NCBI GenBank assembly: GCA_965204755.1
Contig: OZ242011.1
Span: 1,312,001-1,376,000 of the forward strand
DNA from: Candidatus Marinacidobacterium sp.
Lineage (GTDB): Bacteria; Acidobacteriota; Vicinamibacteria; Marinacidobacterales; Marinacidobacteraceae
Length of the DNA stretch: 64,000 nt
Reading direction: 5' to 3'
Below, piece by piece: positions 1,962 to 20,764 of this stretch; position 1 is the stretch's first letter, and each line of letters opens with the position of its first letter. The translations under genes and the position numbers were made by a program. The notes below the pieces were generated by a model. It saw only the letters and a list, made by a program, of their open reading frames with translations, was not told the origin of the DNA and ran no database searches.

Positions 1962-2990
1962 TCACCCGGAAACGCCGGTGCGTCTCCTGTAGGCGTCGGT
2001 CTCGTACACCTCCGGGTTCACGCAGTTCGGCGCGCGCCCCCGCCCCAGGTGCGCCAACGCGTTCTCGGCGCACATGGTGGCCATGCGGTCGCGCGTCGCC
2101 CGGCTGGCGCTCGCGATGTGCGGGAGGATCACCACCTGCTCCAGGCCGACGAGGCCGGGATGGACCTGCGGCTCGTTCTCGAACACATCCAGCCCGGCGC
2201 CGGCGATCCGGCCGTCCTTGAGCGCCTCCGCCAACGCCGCCTCGTCCACGACCGGGCCGCGGGCGGTGTTGACGAGGAAAGCGGTCGGCTTCATCCGCCG
2301 GAAGGCCTCGGCGTCGAACAGGTGATGCGTCGAGGCGTTCAGGTCCGAGTGGATGGTCACGAAGTCACTGCGTTCGAGCAGCGCCGGGAAGTCGGCGTAC
2401 TCCACATCGTCCCGCGCCTCGATGATCTCCCGCATCGGCGGATCGAAGGCCAGCGCTTCCATTTCGAAGCCGTGCGCGCGCCGGAGCATCGCCTGCCCGA
2501 TCCGGCCGAAACCCACGATGCCCAGCGTCTTCCGGCGGCCGTCCCCGCCCGGGCTGATGTCCGCCCCCAGCATCAGCGCCGGGCCCCAGATCCGGTAGCG
2601 GCCCTCGCGCAGGTAGCGGTCGGCCGGGACGACCCGCCGGGCGACGGCCATGAGCAACGCCCAAGCGAGGTCGGCGGTAGTGTCGGTCAACACTCCCGGC
2701 GTGTTCGACACCGGCAGCCCCAACTCGGTGGCCGCGGGCACATCCACATTGTTGAAGCCGACCGCGTAGTTCGCCACGCCGAGCAACTGCGGCCCGGCTT
2801 CCATCAGTTCCCGGTCCACCGCCTCCGTGAGGAGCGACACATGGACATCGGCGGACCGCGCGCCCCGGAGCACCCGCTCCCTCGGCGGGCCGGCGTCGTC
2901 CCTCGTTTCGGCGATTTCGACCTCGGCGGCTTCCCGCAGCAGCGAGAGTCCGGCCTCCGGAATCGAACGGGTCAGGAAGATGCGGCTCAT
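1962..2990 (-). CDS. D-2-hydroxyacid dehydrogenase (glyoxylate/hydroxypyruvate reductase-like)
   Basis: Start MSRIFLTR (ATG 2990 overlaps the upstream stop). Motifs NYAVGFNNVD, GIVGFGRIG, NTARGPVVDE, GLDVFENEP, PHIAS. Confidence 0.9.
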   Translation of the reverse strand: MSRIFLTRSIPEAGLSLLREAAEVEIAETRDDAGPPRERVLRGARSADVHVSLLTEAVDRELMEAGPQLLGVANYAVGFNNVDVPAATELGLPVSNTPGVLTDTTADLAWALLMAVARRVVPADRYLREGRYRIWGPALMLGADISPGGDGRRKTLGIVGFGRIGQAMLRRAHGFEMEALAFDPPMREIIEARDDVEYADFPALLERSDFVTIHSDLNASTHHLFDAEAFRRMKPTAFLVNTARGPVVDEAALAEALKDGRIAGAGLDVFENEPQVHPGLVGLEQVVILPHIASASRATRDRMATMCAENALAHLGRGRAPNCVNPEVYETDAYRRRTGVSG

Positions 2991-4294: not shown

Positions 4295-4428
4295 GGAAGG
4301 TTCTGGAATGTCCCCGGCGGTCCGCCGGGGTTCGGGGTCGTGGGCGGCGCGGCCGGTGGCGGATGATATATTGGCGCCGGCCTCCCGAAGGGGGGCGTTT
4401 CGAGTCAGTTTCCGGCGGCGGGTTGGCG

Positions 4429-5991: not shown

Positions 5992-6045
5992 GCGGAGGCG
6001 CCGGCCTCCGAAGCGACCGCCGCCACGCGAAGAGGAACGCCTACG

Positions 6046-7287
6046 ATGCTGCCGATGGAACTGGACCGCCGGACATTCCTGGGAGCCGGCTTGGGCGCCG
6101 GCCTCGGTTCCGGGCTCGCCGCCGGACTCGGTGCAGCCGAGCCCGCCCTGGCCGTCGGGCGGGACGAAGGGGTCCCCGACCGCAGTCTTCGCGCGAAACA
6201 CCTCGTCGTCATCATCTACGGCAACGGCTGCCGGAAGAAGGACACCGTCGAGGACCCCGCCCACGCGCCCCATCTCGCCCGGATGATGAAGGACGGGACC
6301 GTCTTCACCGAGGACTTCGGCGAGACCGCGAACCTGCACGGCTACCTGTACACGGAACTGCTCACCGGCCGGGAGACCGTCTCGGAGCACCCGCTCTACC
6401 CCACCTGGACGGAGATCTGCCGGAAGGAACTGGGCGGCTCCCCGAACGACTACTGGATGCTGCAGGGCGTCAGTTACTACCGGTCGTGGGTGTACGACCG
6501 CAAGCACTGGAGCGCCCACCCGGAGGGCGGTCTGCAGTTCGGCGCGAACTCGCTGACCATGAACAAACTGTTCCACGACGACGAGCGGCGCTCTCCCGCC
6601 CGACTCGTCCGGGAGAACATCGAACTCGGGCTCGGCCACACGAAGACCAGCCTACGGGCGGTCGAGGACTGGATCGCCGACGCCGTGAGCCGGAGGCTCG
6701 ACCTCCCGGCCTCGACCCGGACGCCCTTGGTGGACCGGGAAGTTCCGCTCGGCGACGGACAGTGCTTCGAGATCGCGAAGCACCTGCTCGCCGCGTTCCG
6801 CCCCAAACTGATCACGATCCAGATGCTCGCGCTCGACGACGCCCACGCCGACGCCGGTTTTTGGGACTACGACACCGACTACGAGCAGTACCGGCAGCAC
6901 ATCGCGGCTACGGACGAACTCATCGGGAACCTGTACGACTTCATCCGGGCCGACCCGCGCCTCCGGGACACGACCGCGATCCTGCTGCGCCCGGAGTGCG
7001 GACGCGACGACGAAGTGAACGCGTACGGCCAACTCCACCACTCGCAGGGGAACTACTACGCCCACAATGTGTGGACCTTGGGAGTCGGGCCGGACTTCCG
7101 GGAGGGGGCGGTGTTCCCCGAAAAGGTGATGCGGCGCGACCTCTGCCCGACGGTGGTGTACGCGCTGACCGGACGGGACCTGGCCCGGCGCGCCTCCGGA
7201 TCGGTCCGCACGCAGTTGTTCCGGGACGAGCACCGCCTGCCGCGGTACATCCGGCGCGACCGCTTCGGGAACCCGGTCGCGGATTGA
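6046..7287 (+). CDS. Tat-exported alkaline-phosphatase/sulfatase-superfamily-like protein (DUF1501-like)
   Basis: Twin-arginine signal DRRTFLG; HLVVIIYGNG, LDDAHAD and TAILLRPECGRD segments resemble the AP-superfamily core. Confidence 0.6.
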   Translation: MLPMELDRRTFLGAGLGAGLGSGLAAGLGAAEPALAVGRDEGVPDRSLRAKHLVVIIYGNGCRKKDTVEDPAHAPHLARMMKDGTVFTEDFGETANLHGYLYTELLTGRETVSEHPLYPTWTEICRKELGGSPNDYWMLQGVSYYRSWVYDRKHWSAHPEGGLQFGANSLTMNKLFHDDERRSPARLVRENIELGLGHTKTSLRAVEDWIADAVSRRLDLPASTRTPLVDREVPLGDGQCFEIAKHLLAAFRPKLITIQMLALDDAHADAGFWDYDTDYEQYRQHIAATDELIGNLYDFIRADPRLRDTTAILLRPECGRDDEVNAYGQLHHSQGNYYAHNVWTLGVGPDFREGAVFPEKVMRRDLCPTVVYALTGRDLARRASGSVRTQLFRDEHRLPRYIRRDRFGNPVAD

Positions 7288-8057
7288 CCGCGGGGAGCGG
7301 AGGGGTGCCCGGTCGCGCGCGCGGACGGCGAACGGACGCCGGCATCGGGCTCGTCGTCGGTCCGGTCCTCGGGGTCGCTCCGCGGTTCGTCGTCGCGGCG
7401 CTGGCCGCCGCGCTCCTCCTGCTGCCCGGCGTGTCCGGCGCGGACGGCCGGACCGCCGGCCGGCAGCCGGTCTCGGCCGGCGGCCCCGCGGACCGGAGGG
7501 CGCCCGTCGCCCGGCCGCCGCAGCATCCCGGGCCGCGGCGGCCCACGCTGGCGGAGGCTGCCCGCCGGAACCGGGAACGGATCGCGAGGAGCCGCCGCCG
7601 GGGAGGACCGGCGCCCCGATACGACGACGCGGCCTTCCCCGCCGAGCGCGCCCCCGACGGCGCGGATCCCGGGCCGGCGGAGTCGTCGGCGCCCCGCTCC
7701 GTCCCCTCCGCCGCCGGCCGGCGGAGCGGGGAAGGATCCCCGGAAGGTGAGCCGTCCCCCGAAGCCTCGGAACGCCTCGGCCTCCGCGACTCCGGATCTC
7801 GAGGAGAGACCTCCGCCGAGGACCGAGCCGCGGCCCGCCGGGAGCGGGAGCAGGCCCTGCGCGAACGGCTGCTCGACCTGGAGTGGTCGCTCGCCGCCGT
7901 CGGCGCGAGCGGCCTCCCGTACGCGCCGCGGAATCCGAACCGGGCGCTCGACCCCCTCGGCGCCGGGCGGCTCCGCGCTCGGCAGGAGGAGATCCGCCGG
8001 GAACTCGCCGCCCTGGCCGAGAAAACCGCCGCCGGGAAGAGACGACCGCCCCGGTAG
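7284..8057 (+). CDS. Hypothetical protein with N-terminal TM/signal segment and C-terminal coiled coil
   Basis: TTG start overlaps the upstream TGA; hydrophobic FVVAALAAALLLLPG; heptad-like C-terminus. Corresponds to the C-terminal part of track ORF 4110..8057. Confidence 0.5.
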   Translation: MTAGSGGVPGRARGRRTDAGIGLVVGPVLGVAPRFVVAALAAALLLLPGVSGADGRTAGRQPVSAGGPADRRAPVARPPQHPGPRRPTLAEAARRNRERIARSRRRGGPAPRYDDAAFPAERAPDGADPGPAESSAPRSVPSAAGRRSGEGSPEGEPSPEASERLGLRDSGSRGETSAEDRAAARREREQALRERLLDLEWSLAAVGASGLPYAPRNPNRALDPLGAGRLRARQEEIRRELAALAEKTAAGKRRPPR

Positions 8058-8066
8058 GGGCCGGCC

Positions 8067-8088
8067 CGCCGCCGGGCCGCCGGCGGCG
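8067..8088. terminator. GC-rich hairpin between convergent genes (possible bidirectional terminator)
   Basis: CGCCGCCGG-GCCG-CCGGCGGCG, 9-bp stem, no U-tract. Confidence 0.3.
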
Positions 8089-8091
8089 ACT

Positions 8092-9048
8092 TCAGCGGAG
8101 CGTGAGCAGCAGCGGGGGCCCGTCCGGGCGTTCGAGCAGGACGGACTCCGAGGGTTCGATGACGGCGACGCGGTATCGGCCGATCCGGTCGCCGGCGGTC
8201 ACCAGCACCGTCTCCCCCTCGTGGAAGAGCGCCGCCCGCACCGGCTCACCCGACCCCAAGTCCACGAACCCGTGGAGTTCGGGCGCCCGCGGAACCTCCG
8301 GCGGGCGGAACGGCGCGGGCGGCTCTCGCTCCACCGAAGGCGCCGCGCGCCCGGCGGGTTCACGCGGCCGGGGCGGCGGCGCAGCGGCCCGGAGTTCCCG
8401 ACCGGCCGCGGGAAGCCGCGCTTCGAGCCAATCGGAAACGGCCTCGATCTCCTCGATCTCCTCGTCGAGGCGGGCATCCCCTCCCGCGGCGGCGCCGGAG
8501 TCCACGCCCTCCTCCGGCCACAACACCGATGCCGCGGCGGTGAGAACCGTCGGCCGGCCGGCGCCGGCGGCGCTCGGCTCGGTGAGTTGCGCCCGGTCGA
8601 ACCGGAGCGGCCAGCCGCCGGCTTCCATCGCGGACACGAACTCGATCAGGTCCGCTGTCCGCCCTTCGGCGGTGAGTTGGGCCTCGGCGCCGGCGGTTCC
8701 CCGCGGCGGGCGGGCGAGCGGCGCGAGCCGAACCGAAGTGAGGTCCACGCCGCGAGGCGCGGCGAGATCGAGGAGGCGCGCCCGGACCTCCGCCACGCTC
8801 CGGGGCCCGGGGGGGCGCCGGTCGAGCAGCGCCGCCAGCCGGGCCAGGCGCTCCTCCCGTTCCCTTCCCCGCTCGACTTCCCGCCGGGCGCGCTCCGCGT
8901 ACTGCTCGGCCGAGGCTCGCTCGGAACGCCGGTCGAGCGCCGCGCGCCGCTCGATCCAGACGAGCGCGGTCAGCGCCGCGAGGAGCACCGTGAGGAGCGC
9001 CCGCAGTCGGAGGGAAACCCCGGCGCCGTGAACGAAACCCGCGGTCAC
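8092..9048 (-). CDS. PilO/GspM-like protein fused to a PilP/GspC-like C-terminal beta domain
   Basis: GTG overlaps the upstream stop. Layout is TM helix, coiled coil, ferredoxin-like segment, Pro-rich linker, then LHGFV...AALFHEGETVLVTAGDRIGRYRVAVIEP. Confidence 0.5.
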   Translation of the reverse strand: MTAGFVHGAGVSLRLRALLTVLLAALTALVWIERRAALDRRSERASAEQYAERARREVERGREREERLARLAALLDRRPPGPRSVAEVRARLLDLAAPRGVDLTSVRLAPLARPPRGTAGAEAQLTAEGRTADLIEFVSAMEAGGWPLRFDRAQLTEPSAAGAGRPTVLTAAASVLWPEEGVDSGAAAGGDARLDEEIEEIEAVSDWLEARLPAAGRELRAAAPPPRPREPAGRAAPSVEREPPAPFRPPEVPRAPELHGFVDLGSGEPVRAALFHEGETVLVTAGDRIGRYRVAVIEPSESVLLERPDGPPLLLTLR

Positions 9049-9638
9049 GGCGCCCCTCCTGGTTTTTCGCGGCCTTCCGCCCGCTCTTCGGTACCGGGGA
9101 CGGCAGGCGGTTCGGTGGAGATCCGGGAGGTGATCTCGACGACCACGCTCCCGTCCCGCTGCCGCCGCTCCGAGATCACTTCCGCCGCCAGCACCGCGTC
9201 CGACCGAAGCAGCGCGCCGAGGAGGCCGGCCACCGCTGCGGCGTCGGACGCTCGGGCGGACAGGGACGCCTCGGCCGCCGCGCTCCCGCCGGCGGCCGGC
9301 GCCGGCCGGATCGCGACCCCCGTCAACCGGACTCCGGGCGGAGCCGCGCCGCGCACCGTGGTGAACGCTTCCGCCAGTCGCACTCCCCCGACCGCGCCGG
9401 ACAGCATCAACACCGCAGCCTCCCGGCGCGCCGCCGCGGCGTCCGTCGCCGGCGCGACGGCGGCGGCCGCGCCTCCGGGCGCGGGCGCCTCGGCGGCCCC
9501 TTCGGCCCGCAACCGGAAGAGGGACACGGCGCCGGTCACGGCCGCGACCGCAAGGCCCGCGAGGGCCGCGTCGAGCAGGAACCGCACTCCGGGGCGCGGA
9601 CGCCGACCGAGTTGGACTCCCGGCGGAATCCGCGCCAT
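9045..9638 (-). CDS. PilN-like protein
   Basis: 197 aa; N-terminal TM helix, then a PPGVRLTGV...LSARASDAAAVAGLLGAL pattern typical of PilN/GspL periplasmic domains; middle gene of the cluster. Confidence 0.5.
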   Translation of the reverse strand: MARIPPGVQLGRRPRPGVRFLLDAALAGLAVAAVTGAVSLFRLRAEGAAEAPAPGGAAAAVAPATDAAAARREAAVLMLSGAVGGVRLAEAFTTVRGAAPPGVRLTGVAIRPAPAAGGSAAAEASLSARASDAAAVAGLLGALLRSDAVLAAEVISERRQRDGSVVVEITSRISTEPPAVPGTEERAEGREKPGGAP

Positions 9639-9659
9639 GGGTCGGGCCGCGCCGGGGAC

Positions 9660-10616
9660 CTAGACCGCGGCCGCCGGTCGGGAGGCCAGCGCGGACGGCC
9701 GGACGCCGACCCTTCGGAGGAGCGCCGCGAGCGCATCCTCCCGAATCGGGGGCGCCGGGCCGGAAACCGACTCGCCGGCGCCCGGCGGTCGGGCGCGGGT
9801 GTCCGGTTCCGCCTCCCCGGCCGGCGAACCGCCGGGCAGCCCGAGCAGCGCCCGGACTTCGGCGGCCCCTTCCCCGCGGACGGAGACCGCCTCGGCGCCG
9901 GCGCTCCCCGTCAGTTTGCGGACCGCGGCCGCCGGCGGTTCCGGATCGAGCGCCGCGCGCAACTTGAGCCGGAAGGCCGTGAGCCGGTTCCCGGCGGCGG
10001 CGGCGACGGCGAAATGCCTCCGATGGAGCGCCGCCAGGATCCGCTCTCCGGCGCCGCGGCCCGCCGCGAGCCACTCGGGAAGGATCGCCAGCGTCGGCGT
10101 GTCCACCCAGCGCACTTCGAGGCCGACCGCCGCCGCCACCGATTCGTACTGCGAGACCACCGCGGCCGAGGCGCAGGCGCCGAGCAGCGAGCGCCGCCGA
10201 AGCGGGCCGCTCGGGATCGCGCCGAAGCGAACCCGGCCCGGCGCCGGCCGCGACCCGGGGTCGCTCCCGGCGGCGAGGCCGGCGGCGAGATCCAGCAGCA
10301 ACCGCCTTCGCCCCCCCGCGCCCGGCGTCTCGGCGAACGCCACCGCCACCGCCCGGTCCGGGATCGCGAGCACGGCCTCGGTGAACGGCCCGCCCGGGTA
10401 TTCGCCGTCCGGTTCCGAGAGCCGCTCCAAGGCGCTCCCGAGCGCCCGCGCCGCGTCGGCGGTCGAGGAGAGGTTCGGCTCGGAAGAGGACGCGCGCAGG
10501 AGGTTCTCCGGGAGACGCCTCTCGACCCACCGCCCGTCGCCGGAGCGGAGGAACAGCCGCTCGGCGCCGAACGCGATTCCGACGGTGCGGCGGCGTTTCG
10601 ACCGGAACCGGCGCAT
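9660..10616 (-). CDS. Divergent PilM/GspL-like cytoplasmic protein
   Basis: TVGIAFG...AVLAIPD...VSQYESVAAAVGLEVRWVD resembles the actin-like PilM fold; first gene of the pilMNO-like cluster. Confidence 0.45.
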   Translation of the reverse strand: MRRFRSKRRRTVGIAFGAERLFLRSGDGRWVERRLPENLLRASSSEPNLSSTADAARALGSALERLSEPDGEYPGGPFTEAVLAIPDRAVAVAFAETPGAGGRRRLLLDLAAGLAAGSDPGSRPAPGRVRFGAIPSGPLRRRSLLGACASAAVVSQYESVAAAVGLEVRWVDTPTLAILPEWLAAGRGAGERILAALHRRHFAVAAAAGNRLTAFRLKLRAALDPEPPAAAVRKLTGSAGAEAVSVRGEGAAEVRALLGLPGGSPAGEAEPDTRARPPGAGESVSGPAPPIREDALAALLRRVGVRPSALASRPAAAV

Positions 10617-10646
10617 CTTGGTGCAGGGAAGCCCGAACGCCGCCGA

Positions 10647-10655
10647 TGGTACAAT
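10647..10655 (+). promoter_or_regulatory. Candidate extended -10 promoter for fusA2
   Basis: TGGTACAAT (TGn-TAnnnT) in the divergent intergenic region; an AT-rich motif in a GC-rich background. Confidence 0.4.
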
Positions 10656-10769
10656 TCGCGGTTCGCCCGGCGGCGGTTCGCCGGGTCTCTCTCCGATACT
10701 TCTTGCGTTTCTTCTCGGAGCCCCTCGAACGCCCGTTCGATCCACCCGCTTCCGGCGCCGACGATGGCC

Positions 10770-10920
10770 GCCCGTGGAGAAAGTCCGGGGAGCGGTCCTC
10801 GGCGCGAAGCGCCGATCGGGAAGGCGCGCCGGAAGGGGGTGTCCACTTCCCCGCGACAGCCAGCGGGGGCTTCGGGCCTTCCGGTGGAGGAGCGGAGGGC
10901 GGAGCGCTTCTTCCGCGGCC
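10770..10920 (+). mobile_element. MITE-like element, copy 1 (internally deleted)
   Basis: Left end GCCCGTGGAGAAAGTCCGGGGAGCGG and right end GAGGGCGGAGCGCTTCTTCCGCGGCC are both homologous to the copy at 13017; about 60 bp shorter. Confidence 0.65.
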
Positions 10921-10947
10921 TGACCGCGCCCCGACGCCGACGGAAGC

Positions 10948-13014
10948 ATGAATTCGAAAGGCCTCCCCCACCTCCGCACCCTCGCGGTCGCCGGACACGG
11001 CACTTCGGGCAAGACCACCTTGGTGTCCGCGCTGCTCTACCAGGCCGGCGCGGAGACCCGACTCGGCCGGATCGAGGAAGGCAACACGGTCACGGATTAC
11101 GACGAAGACGAGATCGAACGGGGAATCAGTCTGGGAGCGGCCCTCGCCTCCTGCGAGTGGAACGAAGTCCACCTGAACCTGGTGGACACCCCCGGATACG
11201 GCAACTTCATCACCGAGGCGAGTTTGGCGATGCCGATCGCCGACACGGCGCTCGTCTCGGTGTGCGGCGTGGACGGCGTCCAGGTGAACACCGAGCGGGT
11301 CTGGGGATTCGCCGAGTCGGCGGGCGCCGCCGCGATGCTGGTCGTGAACCGGCTGGACCGGGAACGGGCGTCGTTTACGCGCGCGCTCGCGGGGATTCAG
11401 CGAGCCTTCGGCCGAACCGCGATTCCGGTGCAGTTGCCGATCGGAGAAGAGGCGGAATTCCGCGGCGTCCTGGATCTGATCTCCATGAAGGCGCATCTCG
11501 GCCCGGGCCCGGACGGCCGGACCGTTTCCCTCTCGGAGGCGCCCGGCGAGATGCAGGCGGCGGCGGAGACCGCAAGATCGGAACTCATGGAGATGATCGC
11601 CGAGTCCGACGAGGAACTGCTCGAACATTTCTTCGAGGCCGGTGAACTGAGCGAGGAGCAGATGCTTCGCGGCCTCGCCGCCGGGGTGGCCTCCCGCTCC
11701 ATCTTCCCGGTGTTCGCCGCCGCCGCGGCGCGGAACATCGGCACGACCGCGCTCCTCGACGCCATCACCGCCGTCGCTCCGGCCCCGGCCCGACGGGGCC
11801 CGGCCAAGGGCCGCGGGCCGGACGGCGAGCCGGCGGAGCGCGAGGTGTCCACTTCGGCGCCGGCGAGCGTCTATGTGTTCAAGACCATCGCCGACCCGTT
11901 CGCCGGGCGGCTGAGCCTGTTCCGGGTGATGACCGGCTCCGTGAGCGCCGACACGCCTCTCCGCAACCTTCGCACGGGCGGAGCGGAGCGGCTGGGAAGC
12001 GTGTACCGGATGAACGGCAAGGCGACCGACGCAGTGGCCTCGCTCGGCGCCGGAGACCTCGGCTGCTTCGCGAAACTGCGGGACACGGCGACCGGAGACA
12101 CCCTGGCGGTGGACGACGCCGTCCGCTATCTCCGTCCGGAAGTGCCGCGGCCGGTCATCAGTTTCGCCATCGAACCCAAGTCGCGGGGTGACGAAGAAAA
12201 GATCTCCCAAGCCCTCCAGCGCCTCGGCGAAGAAGACCTCACGCTCACTTTCGAGAGGGACCGGGAACTGAGACTCTCCGGCACGGGCCAACTCCACATC
12301 GAAGTCGTAGTTTCCCGGCTGAAGCGCAAGTACGGCGTCGAAGTGACGCTCAAGCCTCCGCAAGTGCCTTACCGGGAAACGATCACCGCCAGCGCGGAGG
12401 CGCACGGACGGCACAAGAAGCAGACCGGCGGACACGGACAGTTCGCGGATTGTCATGTGCGCGTCGAGCCGCTTCCCCGCGGCGCAGACTTCGTCTTCGA
12501 GAGCAAGATCGTGGGCGGCGTGATCCCCAAGCAGTTCATTCCCGCCATCGAAAAGGGTTTCCAGGAAGCGCGGCAGAAAGGGTATGTGGCCGGCTATCCG
12601 GTCGTGGACTTCAAGGCGACCGTCTTCGACGGCAAATTCCACGCGGTGGACTCCTCCGAGATCGCTTTCAAGATCGCCGCGTCGCTGGCGTTCCGCGACG
12701 CCATGTCCCGGTGCCGTCCCACTCTGCTGGAGCCGGTGATGGCCGTGGAGATCACGGTTCCCGAAGAGTCCACCGGCGATGTCCTCGGCGACCTGAACGC
12801 GCGCCGGGGCCGGACGCAGGGCATGGACACGAAGGGCGATACGATCGCGATCACCGCGCAGGTCCCGATGGCCGAGATGCTCACCTACGAACCGACCCTG
12901 ACCTCGCTCACGGGCGGCCGCGGCGGCTTCCGGATGGAGTTCTCCCATTACGACCCGGTGCCGCCGAACATCGCCAAACAACTGATCGACGCCCACAACG
13001 CCGACAGCGAATAG
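10948..13014 (+). CDS. fusA2: Elongation factor G paralogue (EF-G2)
   Basis: 688 aa; [47 protein letters not shown] and LLEPV motifs. Divergent G1 motif; lies outside the str operon. Confidence 0.9.
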   Translation: MNSKGLPHLRTLAVAGHGTSGKTTLVSALLYQAGAETRLGRIEEGNTVTDYDEDEIERGISLGAALASCEWNEVHLNLVDTPGYGNFITEASLAMPIADTALVSVCGVDGVQVNTERVWGFAESAGAAAMLVVNRLDRERASFTRALAGIQRAFGRTAIPVQLPIGEEAEFRGVLDLISMKAHLGPGPDGRTVSLSEAPGEMQAAAETARSELMEMIAESDEELLEHFFEAGELSEEQMLRGLAAGVASRSIFPVFAAAAARNIGTTALLDAITAVAPAPARRGPAKGRGPDGEPAEREVSTSAPASVYVFKTIADPFAGRLSLFRVMTGSVSADTPLRNLRTGGAERLGSVYRMNGKATDAVASLGAGDLGCFAKLRDTATGDTLAVDDAVRYLRPEVPRPVISFAIEPKSRGDEEKISQALQRLGEEDLTLTFERDRELRLSGTGQLHIEVVVSRLKRKYGVEVTLKPPQVPYRETITASAEAHGRHKKQTGGHGQFADCHVRVEPLPRGADFVFESKIVGGVIPKQFIPAIEKGFQEARQKGYVAGYPVVDFKATVFDGKFHAVDSSEIAFKIAASLAFRDAMSRCRPTLLEPVMAVEITVPEESTGDVLGDLNARRGRTQGMDTKGDTIAITAQVPMAEMLTYEPTLTSLTGGRGGFRMEFSHYDPVPPNIAKQLIDAHNADSE

Positions 13015-13016
13015 CA

Positions 13017-13233
13017 GCCTGTGGAGAAAGTCCGGGGAGCGGCTGTCGGCGCGAAGCGCCGACCGGGGCGGGGTGCGGGGAGGGAGTATCCCCCTCCCCG
13101 CGATAGTCGGCGGGGGGAATCGCGCAGCGATTCGCGCCGCCGGTCCGTGGGAAGAGCGCCCCGCCGGGAAACGCGACAGGGACTTCGCGTCCTCCGCTCG
13201 ATGAGCAGAGGGCGGGGTGCTTTTTCCACGGGC
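13017..13233 (+). mobile_element. MITE-like element, copy 2 (~217 bp, most complete)
   Basis: Terminal inverted repeats GCCTGTGGAGAAAG / CTTTTTCCACGGGC (12/14 match); internal hairpins; no transposase. Confidence 0.7.
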
Positions 13234-13255
13234 CGATAACGGCGCCGGACGGACC

Positions 13256-16200
13256 ATGCCGTCTCTACCGGTCGGGCTTCCCGCCCGCTATACGGATCCC
13301 GAGACCGGATTCCGTGACCTGTGCCGGTTCCTGGGCATCCCGAATCGGCAGTACCTGCAGCGTCTCGCGGCCCACCAGCGCGTCAGGGAGTTCTTCCGGC
13401 GCGAGAAGGCGTCGTTCAAGAACCTGAAGACGGCGGAGCGTCTCCGCGCCAAACTCACCCGGTTCCTTTCCGATCCGTCGAGCCGCCGGGAGATCTGGAT
13501 CGTACGGCGCAAGGATTCGCGGATCGCGTTTCCTTCTTTCGAACTCCAGGCGCTCAAGCCATACGACGAAAGCGAGAAGGCGCCTTCCGAAGAGGCCCTT
13601 CGCCGGAGTTTGGAGGACATTCCGAAGACCGACGGCATTCCGGGGAAGACGAGCGAGTGGCAGACACCGGCAGTCAACGCCTGGCCGGCGATTCGCGAGG
13701 ACATCAGCCGCTTCGACGAATTGGACGAAGAACACCGGGAAGTCGCCTCGGCCGCGGTATTCGCGGTAGCGACGCTGCTCGATCACCGCGGCTTCCTCGA
13801 ATGGGCGGCCGAGTCCGTGGACGACCTGGAGCCCGAGTTCGCTTTCGCCCTGGGCGTGGAAGATCCGAGCGAGGAAGACATCGCGGAGTGGTCGCGCGTA
13901 CACGACGAGAAGTGGGAAGACGCTTACGGTGAGTTCTTCGACTTCGTATCCGCCGCAGGACGAAGCGGCGTACCCCCCGACCGCTTCGACGAGACCATCC
14001 GGAGGGTGGAGGCGCTCGGCCGTTTGCGGGACGAGATCGTCGCGGATCGGGCGGCGGCGCTCCTGCTCGGGGAACTCTTCGAGAAACTGCACTCCATCCT
14101 GAAGGGGGCGGCGGAGAAGTGCGGGGCCGCATGGCTCACCGCGCTGCTTCCCGAGACGAAAGAGCGGTGGAAGACGCGGTACTCGCCGGTCGGAACTGAA
14201 GGCAGGGAGGCGTTCCAGGCCGATCTGTCCCGTCTCGGCGAGGCGCTGCCCGATGCGCTCGAGTCCTGGGAGCGCGCCGATATCGAAGTGGGCGAAGCCG
14301 AAGCGGAGCGGCAGCGACTTGCTTCGGAGGGCTCCCCGGAAACCGACTGGACGATCGAGGACCGGATCGTCGGGCTGCAGGAGCGAGTCGCGGCGGCGTC
14401 CCGGCGCCGCGTGGAAGCTCGCCGCCGCGTCATCGAGATCATCGCGCCCCGACCCGACGCCCCCGACCCGCCGAAACCGCGGCCGACGAAGAAGAAGGCG
14501 CGCCGCGGGAAAGCGCCCGACCGGGCAGCGAAGGGGAAGCGCGCGGGAACCACCGGGGAGCCGGCGGCCGAGGGCCCGGCGAAGGGAGCGAGTCGCCGCG
14601 CCGCGGCCGAGCGGGATCCGGCGAAGGAAGCCCGTGCGGCGGAGGGGCGGGGAAGACCGTCGAAACCGAAATCGGCGGACGCCGAACGACAACCGCCGGC
14701 CCGCCCCGAGGAAAGGCCGAAGGAGGGACCCGGAGAGACCCCGAAGGGGCGGCCGACCCGACGGCCCGAGGGACCGGCCGGTCGAGCGCCCCGGTCCCTT
14801 CCGGGCCCGGCGAAGACCGCCGGCGCAGCCGAGGCCGACAGGGCGCCGGCCGCGCCGCCCCCCCGACCACCTCCGCCGGCCGTCGTTCCGGCGCCCGAGC
14901 CTCATCGGGAGGCGGCAGCCGCTTGGACCGCGCTCCACGAAGGACGACCGGGCGCGGCGTTCTTCATCGCCCGGCTCGCGGACCCGCAACCGGACCGCGC
15001 TCCGGTGCTGCCCCCCGCCGACCTGATTGCGGCGACCGCGCTCGCCGCCGAGGTCCGGGCGCCGGGCGACGAGTTCGCCGCCGCCCTTCGCCCGATCCTC
15101 TCCGCCATCGACCCGGAGGGCTTCGCGGCCGCGGACGCCCGCGGCCAGGATGCGCTCAACCTCCTGCTCTTCAGTTCGACCCTGGCGCCCGCGCTCTTCG
15201 CGCCGGCGACCGGCGCTCCGTCGCTGCTGAGGCGGATCCACACGACAGAGCCGCTCTCGGCGGTCTATACCTTGGCTACCCGTATCGCCGAATACGCCGA
15301 GCGGCTTCACGGCACGCCGCTCGATATCTCGCTGCTGAGGAGCGCCCTGGGAACGGCGAGCCGCGAAAAGCAACTGGACGAGGTGGGCCGGCGAATCCGC
15401 GAGTGGTCGGTGGCCGTAAAGGCGAAGACCAACCCCCTGCCGCGGGCGGCGCAGGTGCTCACGGCCCTGCTCACCAACGGCTGTCTGGCCGACCTGACGG
15501 AGGCAGTCGCTTCCGGCCGACCGGCGGACCGCGGCCGGGTCGAGCGAATCCTGGAGGAGTTGGGCGCCACGCGGCTTCCGGCGCTGTCCGAAGGGGTAAC
15601 CCGCGAGTTCGAAGCGCTCGTCCACCACAGCGACCGCCGCACCGGCGCGCGGCCGATCAACGAGAAGGCGCTTCGGCAACTCTGGAAACATGTCCACCCG
15701 GCCATCGAGCACGCCCACGAGTGGCTGCGGCTGGTGTCGCGATCGACCGGAGAACGGAAGGGGTACCTGCGGGACCTGATCGTCTCGCTGCGCCGGGACC
15801 TCGAAGAAGAGAGCGACAAGGCGCTGTCGGCGATCTCCGAAGTCGAGGCAGCCGCCCCGGACGCTTCGGAATTGGCCGCCGGTCTGTCGCGCGCCCGGTC
15901 CGCGATCTCGACGCTCCGGCACATCTTCGATCGTCGGGCGCTGTCGGCGGCGCCGCCGCCGAAGCCGGAGATCGTTCGGTACGGCGACTTGGCGTTGGTG
16001 ACCGCGCTGGACCTGGGCGCCGACCTTCGCCCCCGCGCGCCATTCGACCGGGGCGCGGTGCTGGAGGTCCTGCTCGACCGGGAAGGACACGCGGCGACCC
16101 GTTCGGCGGCGTTCCGAGGGCGCCTCGCCCGCGTGGATCTGGTTGGCGCCGGCCTCGCGCTCTCGACGATGGAGGCTCGCGGCGACGAGGGGACCGCCGA

Positions 16201-19200
16201 CTGCCGGCGCGATCTCATCGAGACGGCCGAGCAGCGCCGCTTCACGCTCAACGAAGAACTCGCCAAGGAGACCGCCCGGATCGAAGGCGCGTTCTGCCAA
16301 GGGCGGCTGGGTGACGAACGAAACGACCTGGCGGCGCGGCTGGTCTCACTGGCGCAGGCGCTCGCCGCGCCGGGACGGCCCGGTGAGCCCGGCGCCGGGG
16401 TAGTGGAAGCCGTGGTGGGCGCCGAGCGCGAACTCGAGGAGATCCGGCGCGCCGCCGGGACGATGAGCGCCAAGCGGATTGCCGCCGCCCGGCGTCGGCT
16501 CGAGGAACTCCCCGAGAGCGCCGACCGGCAGGGGCTCGCCGAGGCGCGCGCGGCCATAGACGCCGGACACCTGCTGACCGCCCACGAATACCTGCTCCAA
16601 CTCGAACAGGGGGAGTCGTTCCTGCGTCCGCCGGAGGAGCCGAGCCCGTTCCGGGAGTTCGTCTCCCGGGCGGCCGTCCTCGACGAGGCCCTGCCGCGGT
16701 ACGAACCGGAGCGCGTCATCGCCGGCCTTTCCCGGCGGCAGGGGTTGGCCGGAATCCGCTTCGGCGAACTCGACGCCGAACAGGCGGAGCGCGGAGCGCG
16801 GCTGTTGAAGGCCTGGTATCGACTGGCGGCGAAGCGCGCCTACGACCAGCCGCTGCTCCAGCGATTCCTGGAGGAACTGGGGTTCACCGGCTGCCGCGTG
16901 TCGGCGGACCGGGGAACTCGCTCCTACTTGGGGTCCATGGACTTCGAGCGGCTCGCGGACCGCGACCTCTGCCCGTCCCGGCAGTTCGGGTCGGAAGCGG
17001 ACGGCCGCTACCGCCTGCTGCTGAACTGGGCGCCGAATGTGGAGGAGGCGATCACGCGGTCCGTAGGGGTTTCCGGCGACTCGCCGACCCTCGTACTCCA
17101 CTTCGGCTGTCTCGGCGCGAGCCGGGAGGGCCTGCGCCGGCTGGCCCTGCGCGATCAGCGTCTCTTCCTGGTCCTCGACCATTCGCTCGCAGTCTTCCTC
17201 GCGAGTCGGGGCTCGGGCCTTTCCGCTTTCTTCCGCGCGGCGTTGCCGTTCGCTTCCGCCGACCCGTACGCGCCCACTTCCGGCGCCGTGCCCCCCGAAT
17301 TGTTCTACGGCCGGGAGCGGGAGCGCCGCGACATCGCCGACCGCTCCGGCGCCTGCTTCATCTACGGCGGACGACAACTCGGGAAGACCGCCCTGCTTCG
17401 CCGCGTCGAGAACGATTTCAACGAGACCTCCGGTCAGGTGGCGCTGTGGATCGACCTCAAGGTGCACGAGATCGGTTACGCCAGAGGGCCTCGCGACATC
17501 TGGCCGCTCATCCGGGACGGCCTTTCGGAGCGGGGAGTGCTGTCCCGCCGGCGAGGAGAGTTGGACCCGGCGAACCTCCGCCACATCGAGACCCTGCTGA
17601 AGGCGATGGCCGAATGGGTGGCCGGACGCAAGGACCGCCGCCTCCTCCTGCTTCTCGACGAGGCGGACGAATTCCTGTCGCAGGACGCCGGCAGCGACTT
17701 CCGGGAATCGGCCCGCCTCAAGGGGCTGATGGACCGGACCGACCGCCGGTTCAAGGTCGTGTTTTCCGGACTCCACAATGTACTGCGCACGACGCAACAG
17801 GCGAACCATCCGCTCGCCCACTTGGGCGAGCCGGTTCGAGTGGGGCCGATGCTGGGCGGGCGGGACGAGCGGAAGAGCGCCGAGGCGCTGGTTCGCCAAC
17901 CGCTCGAGGCGGCCGGCTGCCGCTTCGAACGGGACGATTTGATCCACCGCGTCCTCGCGCAGACGAACTACTACCCGTCCCTCATCCAACTCTACGGCGC
18001 CGAACTCGCCCGCCGGGTGCGCGACCTCCAAAAACCGTTCCCCTATCTGGTCTCGGACGCGGAACTCGACGAAGCGTACGGCAGCAGCGAACTGCGCGAC
18101 GCCATTCGAGAGCGCTTCTTGCTCACGCTCCAACTCGATCCTCGATACGAGGTCATCGCCTATGCGCTCGCCTTCGAGTTGAAGGATCACCCGGTCCTGA
18201 ACGACGGGATGGGACGCGACGAGATCCGGGATGCCGCAGAGGGCTGGTGGCCGGACGGCTTCCGGATCCCCGATATCGAGTTCCACATGCTGCTCGAGGA
18301 GATGGACGGACTCGGCGTCCTGCGATCGCTGGACGGGAGTCGCTACACCTTGCGCAACCCGAATGTGCTGCTGTTGCTCGGCAACACGGAGCAGATCGAG
18401 AAGAACCTCGACAAGCCGCGGTCGCTCCCGGCGACTTACGAGCCGGCGTCGTTTCGGGCTCGCTACCCGCGCGAAGGCCCGCGAGCGAAACGCCGAGGGC
18501 CCTTGACCTATCTTCAGGAGGACCGTTTGAGACGCCCCGGCGTCGCCGTGGTCACCGGGAACCGCGCCGCCGGCCTCGCGGAAGTAGAGGCGTTCCTGTC
18601 ACAGCGAAGCGAACAGCGGAACGGGGTGGAGGAGTTTCGCGTACTGCCCCGACCGAACGGGCTGGACGACTTCGTTCGGCGCCTGGGCCGGATCTCGCCG
18701 CCGGCCGCGGGCGTCTCGGTCAACCTCGTACCGCTGGACACCCGCTGGAACACCCAGTGGCTCGACGCTGCCCGGCAGTTCTGCCGGACGCGCCGCAACA
18801 GCCTTCGGATCCGGGTCGTCTTCCAGGCCGACCCGGAGCAGTTGTGGCGTCTCGAAGACGAATTCCCGGTGGCCGACTGGCCCGGGATCGACCGCATCGA
18901 AGTCCGTCCCTGCGACGCGATCTTCGTGCGCAGTTGGCTGGACGATGTCAACCTGCAGCACGACGAGGAGACGATCACCGAACTCCTCGAGGTCACCGGC
19001 GGCTGGCCGGCCGGCCTGTTCGAACTCAACACCGGCCCCACCAAGGACTGGAGTTTCCGCATCGCCGAACTGCGGAAGAAGGCCGCCCGCACGCCGAGCG
19101 GGGAGCAACTCGGCCTGGCGTCGAATCCGGCCGCGGCAGAGGCGCTCCGGCGGTTGGCCGAACTCGAGGAGCCGTTCTCCCAGGAAACGATCGAACTGTT

Positions 19201-19345
19201 GGCCGAAGACAGCGCCGCGGCGGGCGCCACGATCCGCCGCCAGGTGGAATGGGCCCGGCGTCTCGGACTCGTCGAAGCCGGCGGAACCGGCGTCTTCCGG
19301 TTGAACTCCCTGGTCCGGAGTCGCCTCGCCGAGTTCACCGACTGA
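13256..19345 (+). CDS. Giant (~2030 aa) hypothetical protein with a C-terminal STAND-like P-loop NTPase and a degenerate second module
   Basis: PELFYGRE, Walker A GGRQLGKT (~17366), Walker B LLLLLDEAD (~17641), TNYYP helical motif, wHTH-like segment; later TGGWP and a terminal wHTH-like segment. Confidence 0.8.
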   Translation: MPSLPVGLPARYTDPETGFRDLCRFLGIPNRQYLQRLAAHQRVREFFRREKASFKNLKTAERLRAKLTRFLSDPSSRREIWIVRRKDSRIAFPSFELQALKPYDESEKAPSEEALRRSLEDIPKTDGIPGKTSEWQTPAVNAWPAIREDISRFDELDEEHREVASAAVFAVATLLDHRGFLEWAAESVDDLEPEFAFALGVEDPSEEDIAEWSRVHDEKWEDAYGEFFDFVSAAGRSGVPPDRFDETIRRVEALGRLRDEIVADRAAALLLGELFEKLHSILKGAAEKCGAAWLTALLPETKERWKTRYSPVGTEGREAFQADLSRLGEALPDALESWERADIEVGEAEAERQRLASEGSPETDWTIEDRIVGLQERVAAASRRRVEARRRVIEIIAPRPDAPDPPKPRPTKKKARRGKAPDRAAKGKRAGTTGEPAAEGPAKGASRRAAAERDPAKEARAAEGRGRPSKPKSADAERQPPARPEERPKEGPGETPKGRPTRRPEGPAGRAPRSLPGPAKTAGAAEADRAPAAPPPRPPPPAVVPAPEPHREAAAAWTALHEGRPGAAFFIARLADPQPDRAPVLPPADLIAATALAAEVRAPGDEFAAALRPILSAIDPEGFAAADARGQDALNLLLFSSTLAPALFAPATGAPSLLRRIHTTEPLSAVYTLATRIAEYAERLHGTPLDISLLRSALGTASREKQLDEVGRRIREWSVAVKAKTNPLPRAAQVLTALLTNGCLADLTEAVASGRPADRGRVERILEELGATRLPALSEGVTREFEALVHHSDRRTGARPINEKALRQLWKHVHPAIEHAHEWLRLVSRSTGERKGYLRDLIVSLRRDLEEESDKALSAISEVEAAAPDASELAAGLSRARSAISTLRHIFDRRALSAAPPPKPEIVRYGDLALVTALDLGADLRPRAPFDRGAVLEVLLDREGHAATRSAAFRGRLARVDLVGAGLALSTMEARGDEGTADCRRDLIETAEQRRFTLNEELAKETARIEGAFCQGRLGDERNDLAARLVSLAQALAAPGRPGEPGAGVVEAVVGAERELEEIRRAAGTMSAKRIAAARRRLEELPESADRQGLAEARAAIDAGHLLTAHEYLLQLEQGESFLRPPEEPSPFREFVSRAAVLDEALPRYEPERVIAGLSRRQGLAGIRFGELDAEQAERGARLLKAWYRLAAKRAYDQPLLQRFLEELGFTGCRVSADRGTRSYLGSMDFERLADRDLCPSRQFGSEADGRYRLLLNWAPNVEEAITRSVGVSGDSPTLVLHFGCLGASREGLRRLALRDQRLFLVLDHSLAVFLASRGSGLSAFFRAALPFASADPYAPTSGAVPPELFYGRERERRDIADRSGACFIYGGRQLGKTALLRRVENDFNETSGQVALWIDLKVHEIGYARGPRDIWPLIRDGLSERGVLSRRRGELDPANLRHIETLLKAMAEWVAGRKDRRLLLLLDEADEFLSQDAGSDFRESARLKGLMDRTDRRFKVVFSGLHNVLRTTQQANHPLAHLGEPVRVGPMLGGRDERKSAEALVRQPLEAAGCRFERDDLIHRVLAQTNYYPSLIQLYGAELARRVRDLQKPFPYLVSDAELDEAYGSSELRDAIRERFLLTLQLDPRYEVIAYALAFELKDHPVLNDGMGRDEIRDAAEGWWPDGFRIPDIEFHMLLEEMDGLGVLRSLDGSRYTLRNPNVLLLLGNTEQIEKNLDKPRSLPATYEPASFRARYPREGPRAKRRGPLTYLQEDRLRRPGVAVVTGNRAAGLAEVEAFLSQRSEQRNGVEEFRVLPRPNGLDDFVRRLGRISPPAAGVSVNLVPLDTRWNTQWLDAARQFCRTRRNSLRIRVVFQADPEQLWRLEDEFPVADWPGIDRIEVRPCDAIFVRSWLDDVNLQHDEETITELLEVTGGWPAGLFELNTGPTKDWSFRIAELRKKAARTPSGEQLGLASNPAAAEALRRLAELEEPFSQETIELLAEDSAAAGATIRRQVEWARRLGLVEAGGTGVFRLNSLVRSRLAEFTD

Positions 19346-19449
19346 GCGCCCGGCGACCGGGCGGAGCGACCGGGTTCCCGCGCCGGGTCGGCATGCGCCG
19401 GCCGCGGCCCGACAACGGGTCCCGACCGGCCGTAAGGCGGAAGTCCCTG

Positions 19450-19803
19450 CTACTCGACGAACTCGATTCGAGCCATGGGGGCGCCGTCGCCGGCCCTCGG
19501 CCCCAGTTTCAGGATCCGCGTATAGCCCCCCGGCCTGGTCTGGAACTTCGGCCCGACCTCGGAGAAGAGGTGGCGGACCACCTCCTTCTGCGGCAGGACC
19601 TGGAGCGCGCGCCTTCGGGCGGCGAGATCCGAACGGCGGGCGAGAGTCACGAGCCGCTCCACGAACGGCCGCACCTCCTTCGCTTTGGCGAGCGTGGTCC
19701 GAAGATGCCCGTGCCGGATGAGCGTAGCCGCCAGATTCCGCAGCAACGCTCGGCGGTGCGAGGGGCGGCGCCCCAACTTCCGGTGGGCGTTACGGTGCCG
19801 CAT
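19450..19803 (-). CDS. rplQ: 50S ribosomal protein L17
   Basis: MRHR...KLGR...[10 protein letters not shown]...[12 protein letters not shown]. Confidence 0.97.
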
Positions 19804-19816
19804 CTTCCCGTGCCCC

Positions 19817-20764
19817 TCAGCCGGCCCCCATGCCGAGATGGAGGTTCATGTTCTTCAGCACCTTCTCGATTTCCTCGATGCTCTTCCGCCCGAGGTTGCG
19901 CTCCTTCATCAACTCCTCGGCAGTCCGCACGACCAGTTCTCCGATCGTGCCGATGTCCGCGTTCCGAAGGCCGTTGAAGGCTCGCACCGAGATCTTGTCG
20001 CCGATCTCGTCGATCGACTTGTAGCGATGGGTCTCGAAGGCGATCTGCTCCTCGTTGACCACGACTGCTTCGGCGTCCTCGCCGTCCCCTCCGGAAAAGA
20101 TGCCGAGCATCTCCCGGAGCACGCGAGCCGAAGTGAACAGCGCATCGGTGGGTTTCACCGAGCCGTCCGTGTGCACATCGATGACGAGTTTGTCGAGATC
20201 GGTGTCCTGGCCCACGCGCGCCGGCTCCACCGTGTAGTTCACCTTGCGGACCGGGGAGTGGGTCGAGTCGAGCGGGATGTAGCCGATGTCGAGATCCTCG
20301 TCCCGGTTCTGGTCCGCCGGAATTCGACCGCGCCCGTTCTTGACCCGCATCTCGATGTCGAGGTCGCCCGGCTCGGTCATCGTGGCGATGTACACATCGT
20401 CCTGCAGGACTTCCACATTCGGATCGGTCTCGATGTCCGCCGAAGTCAGGACCCGGGGTTCCTTCGCTCGCAAGCGAATCGTCCGGGGAACATTCCCGTG
20501 CAGCCGAAGCGGAACCGTCTTCAGGTTCAGGATCATGTCCATCGTGTCTTCCTTGACTCCGGAGATCGTGGACATCTCGTGCCGCACTCCCGCGAACCGG
20601 ACGGCGGTGACCGCCGCGCCCCGGATCGAGTCGATCAGCACGCGGCGAAGGGAGTTCCCCACGGTCACGCCGTAGCCGCGCTCGAAGGGCGCCGCCGAAA
20701 AGCGACCGTAAGTCTCCGTGCTCTCGACGACCTTGACGGCGCGAGGCCGCTGCAGTTCAGACAT
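19817..20764 (-). CDS. rpoA: RNA polymerase alpha subunit
   Basis: [36 protein letters not shown]. Confidence 0.97.

Follow-up and report, generated by a model that had tools for sequence, protein, structure and literature searches.

What does a protein of about 2,000 residues do when its gene lies between a fusA paralog and the ribosomal protein gene rplQ? The question is raised by a stretch of 64,000 nucleotides from Candidatus Marinacidobacterium sp. (Acidobacteriota; contig OZ242011.1, positions 1,312,001 to 1,376,000 of the forward strand), hereafter the window, to which all coordinates refer unless another record is named. A single open frame on the + strand, from 13217 (GTG) or 13256 (ATG) to 19345, encodes a giant ATPase at this place. 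An initial annotation, made from the sequence alone, had described the protein as an orphan with an inverted NLR-like architecture and as a candidate single-gene defense or signaling system. We find that it belongs to a widespread, unnamed, and horizontally mobile family, whose members are mostly followed by one conserved partner gene. Our preferred reading, to which we assign a probability of roughly 55%, is that the protein is the large ATPase of a mobile two-gene module of NTPase plus effector, with a function in defense or conflict suggested by genomic context.

The guanine-plus-cytosine (GC) content of the window is 65-78%, and many of its long frames are therefore spurious. The frame from 13217/13256 to 19345 is a genuine gene despite this background. 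Homologs align from the ATG at 13256 (MPSLPVGLP...), so the length is counted from there as 2029 aa, close to the ~2030 first proposed, with a coding sequence of 13256..19345 (+ strand, stop codon included) in which strain differences are mostly synonymous. Residue numbers below start at this ATG unless marked P0001, a numbering that begins 13 residues earlier, at GTG 13217.

A widespread and mobile family

The first homolog search returned 366 proteins at E ≤ 0.001, most of them 1950-2075 aa long, and the description of the protein as an orphan is thus abandoned. Identities ranged from 34 to 96%, with three homologs at 89-96% and many at 34-45% over 99% of the query. Scanning one genome per species by pattern, 185,579 in all, identified 293 relatives, and 78 of the 293 loci were kept for detailed comparison. 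They are spread over Acidobacteriota, Gemmatimonadota, Latescibacterota, Binatota, and Gamma-, Beta-, and 'Delta'-proteobacteria, and also over Cyanobacteria, Planctomycetota, Nitrospirota, Thermomicrobiales, Bacteroidota/Rhodothermota, and Thermotogota. Members of this set measure 1.8-2.4 kaa (thousand amino acids) and all share a common core, approximately residues 570-2040, while the 300-900 residues that precede the core vary between clades. The window copy belongs to the family by alignment over the full core and by retention of every family-invariant residue.

The type of N-terminal module carried by the window protein was found by profile search in 306 representative proteins, at or near the N terminus in nearly all of them; in the few exceptions it lies 113-176 residues in. 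A word-based search for shorter proteins carrying this module found none, and the many shorter matches of the profile search are probably cuts at contig ends. Cultured carriers of the family exist (Calothrix NIES-2100, Paraburkholderia graminis C4D1M, Edaphobacter aggregans DSM 19364, and Salinibacter ruber, on plasmid pSR118), and the idea put forward here is therefore directly testable.

Several observations bear on mobility. The ATPase module occurs on 28 plasmid records. The gene tree is at odds with taxonomy and mixes phyla; copies from Latescibacterota and Gemmatimonadota, for example, are separated by a branch length of 0.03-0.04. Full-length copies are present in seven of 41 related genomes, the window's own included. 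Viral contigs and phage genomes yielded no relatives, a result that we count as neutral for a defense reading, and JGI metagenome contigs yielded no close one. The initial annotation had held that vertical conservation as a housekeeping protein, or a match to an already named system, would speak against it; what we found is a patchy, tree-discordant distribution and no matching PADLOC or NCBIfam model. Neither the family nor its fusions to sigma-70 and pPIWI-RE, described below, turned up in the available portions of the literature searched, supplements excepted, including 10.64898/2026.01.04.697583, PMC3702460, PMC7159879, and PMC3710099.

A conserved partner gene

Clustering of the flanking open reading frames (ORFs) of the 78 loci gave one dominant cluster, a protein of ~370 aa whose gene comes immediately next to the giant gene on its downstream side, in the same orientation. 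BLAST clustering recovered it at 46 loci, where the gap to the giant gene has a median of -3 bp, and it was the sole conserved neighbor of the giant gene. Downstream sequence is available for 73 loci; in 62 of them a hidden Markov model (HMM) built from 40 of these partners detected the partner, adjacent to the giant gene in 61. The family is accordingly better described as a two-gene arrangement than as the single-gene system first suggested, the window copy being a secondary form that has no partner (see below).

The partner had no Pfam or PADLOC match at normal thresholds. A sequence-profile search of the PDB gave nothing significant (best E, 0.015), and the ESM Atlas returned 'hypothetical protein' clusters alone. 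Among the 40 partners, weak matches were found to HEPN_Swt1 (12 partners; best E, 0.015), Ribonuc_2-5A (KEN-type; two partners), and Csx1_HEPN (one partner), and no other family recurred. An R-N-x-L-x-H motif, invariant in the partner, lies ~20 residues from the C terminus; HEPN domains are all-alpha and carry an Rx4-6H motif. From these sequence features we infer that the partner may combine an adaptor N-domain with a HEPN-like RNase C-domain. Complex prediction for the C-terminal 436 residues of the ATPase and the partner, both from locus L012, gave a score of 0.00, which carries no weight either way.

Exchangeable ends

Both ends of the module can be replaced. A complete sigma-70 factor was present in six of the 70 N-terminal regions scanned, all of them cyanobacterial (L054, L061, L062, L068, L072 on plasmid pPhorR1S1_1, and L073). 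It occupies residues ~183-481 of frames of 2250-2400 aa, with regions 1.2, 2, 3, and 4 matched at E values of 1e-10 to 1e-27. Downstream, an HKD+Snf2 helicase takes the place of the usual partner in five of these sigma-fused loci; L054 stops at the contig edge. The helicases of L061 and L072 match the PADLOC model C3a139 ('HKD+Snf2') at E values of ~1e-63. At L061, the sigma-fused giant gene spans 7307-14500 and the HKD(PLD)+Snf2 helicase gene spans 14544-17891.

A second replacement was found on an alphaproteobacterial plasmid, from Azospirillum oryzae (L094, 1447-11217). The protein encoded there, of 3256 aa, joins pPIWI_RE_X, MID_pPIWI_RE, and RNaseH_pPIWI_RE (residues 45-961) to a full core that aligns with query residues 649-2020 at E 1.5e-74, and its gene lies downstream of a PprDinG-type helicase. 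The next gene (L094, 11310-12887) has the N-domain of the partner (E, 4.5e-43), with AAA_33 replacing the HEPN-like part. Relatives annotated as 'RNaseH domain-containing' also occur on Bradyrhizobium and Microvirga plasmids. Swapping of both an N-terminal module and an effector end is typical of conflict systems.

Defense genes and mobile elements near family members

Several known defense genes adjoin family members at loci that were picked by hand. On Methylocystis plasmid pMpar-1 the neighbors are DruH and DruE of Druantia III (both with E values of 0), and at the G014 locus a type III methyltransferase (E, 4e-176) and a restriction enzyme (E, 5e-130) follow directly downstream. Salinibacter plasmid pSR118 has a PDC-S37/Hhe helicase as neighbor, one locus of a cluster spanning six has PDC-S01, and G004 has a CBASS-type patatin effector. 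Tyrosine integrases, rve transposases, and Tn5-like transposases recur as non-conserved neighbors, an integrase or transposase being found near at least 14 loci.

In two genomes from the window's bacterial family, copies from another clade follow directly after an AAA_27 (SMC-like) protein of 1166-1279 aa (L090 of G014, 3446-19836, and L089 of G011, 425-3922). The N-terminal module recurs, as a weak copy, in a further ORF at the G014 locus.

Domain architecture of the window protein

Two AlphaFold2 models, computed on purpose-built alignments, together cover the whole protein. The N-terminal model (residues 1-1186; 72 sequences; mean predicted local distance difference test score [pLDDT], 83.9) is entirely helical. 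The C-terminal model comprises P0001 residues 1200-2042 (64 sequences; pLDDT, 87.8; predicted template modeling score, 0.82). These models bear out the helical and coiled-coil N terminus, disordered linker, helical middle, and ATPase with winged helix that had been proposed from the sequence, and every motif quoted at the outset was located.

The clade-specific N-terminal module (13256..14443, + strand; model pLDDT mostly >85) consists of a globular helical domain, aa 1-200, and coiled-coil hairpins, aa 206-396, built of helices of 30-50 residues. A disordered linker rich in Pro, Ala, Lys, and Arg follows (residues 408-537; 14477..14866, + strand; pLDDT, ~30); this stretch has a GC content of 75% and a strong AT skew. 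A short contig of metagenome run X3 carries a 3-letter, frame-preserving length variant from a natural population in the Pro/Ala-rich linker, at 14650-14791. The family-wide core begins with an all-alpha middle of ~640 aa (14903..16834, + strand; model residues 550-1186, pLDDT mostly >90), and relatives with unrelated N termini align from approximately residue 570. Foldseek with residues 1-1186 found no solved structure at E ≤ 0.001, and VIA-align matched generic coiled coils alone (Z ≤ 11.2), on residues 310-406 and 986-1072. Since these comparisons barely probed the parts outside those two segments, we make no claim of a new fold for the N-terminal 1186 residues.

A small alpha/beta domain precedes the ATPase (16835..17269, + strand; P0001 residues 1207-1351; CPSRQFGSE..GRYR and LVLDHS), with alternating strands and helices in the model. 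The residues G, A, G, Y, D, and P are invariant in the family alignment of this domain; a D-E of its consensus reads D-H in the window copy. A sequence-profile search of the PDB gave nothing significant for the whole family (best E, 0.26) or for this domain (best E, 0.83), and the ESM Atlas had no usable match for the domain. Its alpha-beta-beta-beta-alpha-beta order had raised a PD-(D/E)xK nuclease as a candidate, which was rejected as no conserved E/D...ExK set is present.

The active-looking AAA+ module, of the Orc/Cdc6-STAND type with lid and winged helix, lies at 17261..18406 (+ strand). Its motifs, all on the + strand, are PELFYGRE (17294-17317), Walker A GGRQLGKT (17366-17389), Walker B LLLLLDEAD (17642-17668), and TNYYP (17963-17977). 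Across 64 sequences the G, T, D, E, and D of the Walker motifs are invariant, and the K is nearly so. Pfam AAA_22 (PF13401) matched residues 1376-1521 with 28.8 bits against a gathering cut-off of 27 (E, 1.7e-6). It was the sole Pfam family over its cut-off and is also recorded for most homologs; AAA_16 (PF13191; 26.8 bits versus 32.6) and ATPase_2 (PF01637; 16.9 versus 33.2) stayed below theirs. By the definition said to go back to Leipe et al. in 2004, STAND NTPases have an intact Walker A (GxxxxGK[ST]) and a Walker B with extra acidic residues, and GGRQLGKT and LLLLLDEAD show both. As for the GxP/winged-helix part of that class, a lid and a winged helix are modeled and align with 2qen and with NLRs, the motif TNYYP has no glycine, and Orc/Cdc6 matches equally well. 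Where a STAND protein would have its C-terminal sensor, a lysine-less P-loop-like module and a winged helix follow the ATPase.

This last module (18449..19342, + strand) was delimited from the secondary structure of the model, in which the AAA+ module and its winged helix are followed by another beta-alpha-beta domain, then by a helical lid, and finally by a terminal helix-helix-helix-hairpin; the terminal winged helix starts at ~19200. VTGNRAAGL (18551-18577), TGGWP (18995-19009), and RLGLVE (19259-19276), all on the + strand, lie within the module, TGGWP in its helical part. The initial annotation took VTGNRAAGL for an eroded Walker A. The family consensus at this 'P-loop' is GVxVIxGxxAAGL, which contains no lysine; since the lysine is absent family-wide, the lack of activity dates back to the family's origin and is no erosion peculiar to the window copy. 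Whether the module is a second, degenerate ATPase, as also proposed, is a question on which the evidence divides. Its secondary structure agrees with the proposal, as do alignments of tandem AAA+ proteins (Pex1/6, ClpA, ClpC), which span both modules (650-800 Foldseek columns; VIA-align ranges 44-815 and 51-740). Profile-profile comparison of the two modules with hhalign was not significant (E, 0.19), with one local alignment placing TGGWP on TNYYP. The tail of the module weakly matches a MarR-like winged helix in the profile search of the PDB (E, 0.094). That the module is a diverged AAA+/STAND module is plausible.

Fold matches of the C-terminal model concern the AAA+ module (model residues 105-531). 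VIA-align placed the archaeal ATPases 2qen (Z, 16.6; 322 of 350 residues aligned) and 2fna (Z, 15.2) first, and Foldseek matched 2qen at E 4.6e-8. A wheat NLR (Z, 14.4), Orc1/Cdc6 (Z, 14.2), BrxC (9zdx; Z, 12.4), Avs3 (Z, 11.9), MalT (Z, 10.9), and EfAvs5 (Z, 10.3) were also matched, as were RPP1 and CED-4. The 'inverted NLR-like' label is fair for the order of the domains, but the ATPase itself is no closer to NLRs than to archaeal PF01637 ATPases and Orc1/Cdc6.

Strong fold matches to MuB (Z, 13.8) and TnsC (Z, 13.4) bring in a reading centered on mobile elements, according to which the protein would act like TnsC, MuB, or IstB and serve integrative elements and plasmids in choosing targets, in their maintenance, or in competition. 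AAA_22 is indeed shared with TniB/TnsC-like ATPases, and the plasmid records and the integrases and transposases noted above fit as well. The conserved neighbor of the giant gene, however, is the ~370-aa partner alone, no transposase or integrase being conserved there, no recombinase gene adjoins the window copy, and the protein is several times the size of TnsC or MuB. We consider such a role distinctly unlikely.

The window copy and its insertion site

The window copy departs from the family pattern in having no partner. The partner HMM had no match at E ≤ 10 in the whole 3.98-Mb genome, which is 89% complete by marker genes, and a single-protein search of that genome likewise found none. 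Downstream of the giant gene there is no room for the partner because rplQ follows after 104 bp, and no partner was found in the sister species either. In the gene tree, the window copy and that of the sister species ('Ca. Marinacidobacterium', L009) lie inside a clade of nine partner-bearing copies from Vicinamibacterales and Bryobacterales (Shimodaira-Hasegawa-like approximate likelihood ratio test support, 99). Copies from further genera of the window's bacterial family group in a separate clade that is likewise partner-less. From this placement we conclude that the gene arrived at least twice in the window's bacterial family and that the partner was lost in the window lineage, so that the window copy is a secondary, partner-less derivative.

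The flanks identify the site of arrival. Upstream lies the fusA paralog (10948..13014, + strand; Pfam EF-G domains), and downstream lies rplQ (19450..19803, - strand; Pfam Ribosomal_L17), with which the alpha operon ends; from 19450 the minus strand carries rplQ, rpoA, rpsD, rpsK, and rpsM. The giant gene is therefore convergent with the end of this operon, as had been noticed from the sequence. fusA stands tail-to-tail with rplQ, 60-1100 bp apart, in 18 of 23 related rplQ loci (17 of 22 when the unpublished genome G033, locus L119, is set aside), whereas the window's genus has the giant gene between the two. Among the genomes searched, placement beside rplQ/rpoA is confined to this genus, and the other copies in the family lie elsewhere. 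Within this genus the junction is apparently a hot spot for insertions. In the sister species, two tandem genes for predicted lipoproteins (L009, 16424-19141 and 20035-22779) occupy the junction between the giant gene and rplQ. The two lipoproteins, of 905 and 914 aa, are 82% identical, have a lipobox-like N terminus and no Pfam or PADLOC match, and are members of a family of which the window's genome contains at least 10 paralogs.

The spacer between fusA and the giant gene is filled by a repeat (13015..13240, no strand assigned) that resembles miniature inverted-repeat transposable elements (MITEs) and repetitive extragenic palindromic sequences. It is ~225 bp long and GC-rich and has ~40 near-full-length copies, 76-93% identical, in the window's genome (G000), in agreement with the MITE that the initial annotation placed before the gene. 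The repeat is absent in the sister species, in which the giant gene starts ~30 bp after fusA. Partial copies lie at 10770-10869 and 59633-59749, four head-to-tail copies lie at G000 316624-317514, and metagenome contigs end or rearrange within the spacer repeat. Around the giant gene no sigma-70-type promoter and no terminator above chance were found. Farther upstream, the segment 8000-10500 has a GC content of 77-79%, ~10 points over its surroundings, and long frames are open around it on both strands (4110-8057 and 7747-9663 on the + strand, 8092-13257 on the - strand), none with a Pfam match.

This position, between fusA and the alpha operon in the window and directly after fusA in the sister species, invites a different interpretation, namely that the protein is a regulatory ATPase linked to transcription or DNA. 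It would be a MalT-like switch whose N-terminal output module targets RNA polymerase or DNA. The window copy would be a domesticated regulator, perhaps controlling the neighboring translation and transcription genes. The complete sigma-70 factors fused to the core at six cyanobacterial loci, the two winged helices per protein, the presence of MalT among the fold matches, and the purifying selection on a copy without a partner (see below) all fit this interpretation. On the other side, the position beside rplQ/rpoA is peculiar to a single genus among the genomes searched, and the sigma-fused clade is small, is nested among partner-bearing copies, and is itself followed by the HKD+Snf2 helicase. 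A patchy, mobile distribution would also be odd for a controller of core genes. A regulatory role is possible but doubtful.

That the gene is a vertically inherited housekeeping gene of this acidobacterial lineage is highly implausible. Synteny in two species of the genus and purifying selection would agree with it. The few full-length copies among the related genomes, the different gene-tree clade of the copies in the family's other genera, and the empty junction in most related loci are contrary to it.

Selection on the partner-less copy

Strains were compared with the aid of contigs from four metagenome runs, which belong to different studies of sponge and marine samples and are ~99.5% identical over the gene. 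Among the differences listed, 34 fall inside the gene, 27 synonymous and seven non-synonymous, with a ratio of non-synonymous to synonymous polymorphism (pN/pS) of ~0.09. All seven listed non-synonymous differences are in the N-terminal half. No indel inside the gene is among the differences listed; two contigs, one each from runs X3 and X9, show three gap positions each, those of the X3 contig being the length variant in the linker. Between species, the giant gene is 65% identical to the syntenic copy of the sister species, compared with 83-94% for the flanking housekeeping genes.

These data bear on the view that the window copy is a decaying remnant, functionless since the loss of its partner and on the way to becoming a pseudogene. 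In its favor, the partner is missing from the window, the sister species, and the whole genome, a MITE has inserted before the gene, and the small alpha/beta domain reads D-H instead of D-E. Against it, the 6.1-kb frame is intact, pN/pS is low, the family-invariant residues are all kept, and the sister species has retained the gene. We see a very small chance that the copy is such a remnant. Together, the intact frame, the low pN/pS, the invariant residues, and the retention in the sister species lead us to conclude that, as judged from sequence, the window copy is intact, under purifying selection, and functional. It would thus amount to a natural experiment, in which a sensor or switch has been kept by selection after the loss of the effector.

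A proposed mechanism and how far it reaches

In the two-gene module that we favor, the ATPase would be the switch between sensor and effector. The N-terminal module and the alpha region may recognize a cue from an invader or provide docking to transcription or nucleic-acid machinery. Binding of ATP would then drive oligomerization via the active module, with the dead module as a built-in pseudo-subunit, and the winged helices would contact nucleic acid. The effector of the partner would be activated as a result; in the usual partner, this would be the C-terminal domain acting as a HEPN RNase. In the window genus, the module would have been inserted at the fusA/rplQ junction and would have lost its partner. 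The window copy might need no effector and simply bind or sequester its target, or it might use an unrelated effector whose gene lies elsewhere.

The proposal that the protein is a defense candidate is borne out at the level of the family, by its patchiness, the conflict between gene tree and taxonomy, the plasmids, the integrases, the defense neighbors, and the insertion at the junction; it finds no counterpart in a PADLOC match to STAND or Avs models. Several points weigh against the favored module. The defense role of every member rests on context, and the defense neighbors were collected without control loci; G005 and G006 have housekeeping neighbors only. PADLOC and NCBIfam contain no model that matches the protein. 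The HEPN assignment derives from sub-threshold matches (best E, 0.015) and a short motif. The count of strain differences covers only those listed, and 24 further differences lie outside it. Finally, the window copy has neither a partner nor a recognizable effector, and the usual mechanism of the family therefore cannot apply to it as it stands.

A bolder version of the same idea would make the family a new class of immune or surveillance machine. The exchangeable N-terminal module would plug into the nucleic-acid machinery of the cell: sigma-70 would ride RNA polymerase, pPIWI-RE would use guide nucleic acids, and the coiled-coil module of the window protein would be a third docking device. 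On sensing a transcription or replication complex that is hijacked or foreign, the live/dead Orc-like ATPase would switch on a swappable effector, be it a HEPN RNase, an AAA_33 kinase, or an HKD-Snf2 nuclease-helicase. The window copy, fixed in sponge-associated acidobacteria, would protect by occupancy alone. We offer this version as speculation and regard it as unlikely.

NTPase-centered defense, as in Avs, bacterial NLRs, and BREX, figures prominently in bacterial immunity and in how eukaryotic NLRs arose. The present family is large and occurs on plasmids, and it matches no model in PADLOC-DB 2.0 or NCBIfam.

Comparison with known systems

The best structural matches, the archaeal PF01637 ATPases (PDB 2qen, PAB2304; 2fna, SSO1545), align with the window protein over AAA+ core, lid, and winged helix and share an F-x-G-R-E arm before the P-loop. 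They differ in being single-module proteins of ~350 aa and of unknown function, and they are without the alpha region, the second module, and a partner gene. Orc1/Cdc6, TnsC, and MuB are as similar in fold as NLRs are and likewise have an AAA+ module followed by a winged helix; the pairing of an active with an inactive unit in the giant ATPase recalls the subunits of ORC. The family differs from these proteins in having no replication or transposition context and no sequence-level match to them, and the giant ATPase is far larger.

With Avs proteins and with the NLRs of bacteria, plants, and animals, the family shares a P-loop NTPase, a helical lid, and a winged-helix switch, as well as large size, patchy distribution, and exchangeable N-terminal modules. 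The giant ATPase has no C-terminal TPR, LRR, or WD40 sensor, however; its long non-ATPase part precedes the NTPase, a dead second module comes after it, and the likely effector is a separate gene rather than an N-terminal fusion. In agreement with what had been read from the sequence, Pfam, PADLOC, and NCBIfam recognized no repeat of these kinds and no effector domain in the protein. A PADLOC-DB 2.0 scan of the window protein matched no Avs, NLR, or STAND model and gave mad8 (E, 0.049) as its only match, and no NCBIfam model matched it. Of three relatives scanned with PADLOC, two were without a match and the sigma-fused L061 had one, to MzaA on its sigma part (E, 1.6e-51). For BrxC of BREX and DUF499 proteins, PADLOC gave no BrxC match, the similarity is in fold only, and neither pglZ nor brxB was found near the window copy.

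In defense contexts, Swt1-like HEPN domains of bacteria can be fused to STAND ATPases or to an AAA+ ATPase (Ava_2192), as listed by Anantharaman et al. 2013 (PMC3710099). Compared with the Swt1/Abi2-family systems covered there, the present family also pairs a Swt1-like HEPN motif with an AAA+ protein. It does so on a separate protein of ~370 aa that has its own conserved N-domain, and its ATPase, of ~2000 aa, is not of the DUF499 type; the window copy is partner-less.

The pPIWI-RE systems, as presented in Burroughs et al. 2013 (PMC3702460), consist of three genes, for a restriction endonuclease, a DinG helicase, and pPIWI-RE. One branch of the present family has a full N-terminal pPIWI-RE module and follows a PprDinG-type helicase, as in those systems. 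The fusion to an ATPase is not described in that article, from which the word 'ATPase' is absent, and the window protein itself has no PIWI module.

NTPase-centered conflict systems with swappable effectors are already known, and the family would be a further form of them. Its unusual traits are the C-terminal tandem of a live and a dead ATPase and the use of an entire sigma factor, or of a PIWI-RE, as N-terminal module in some members.

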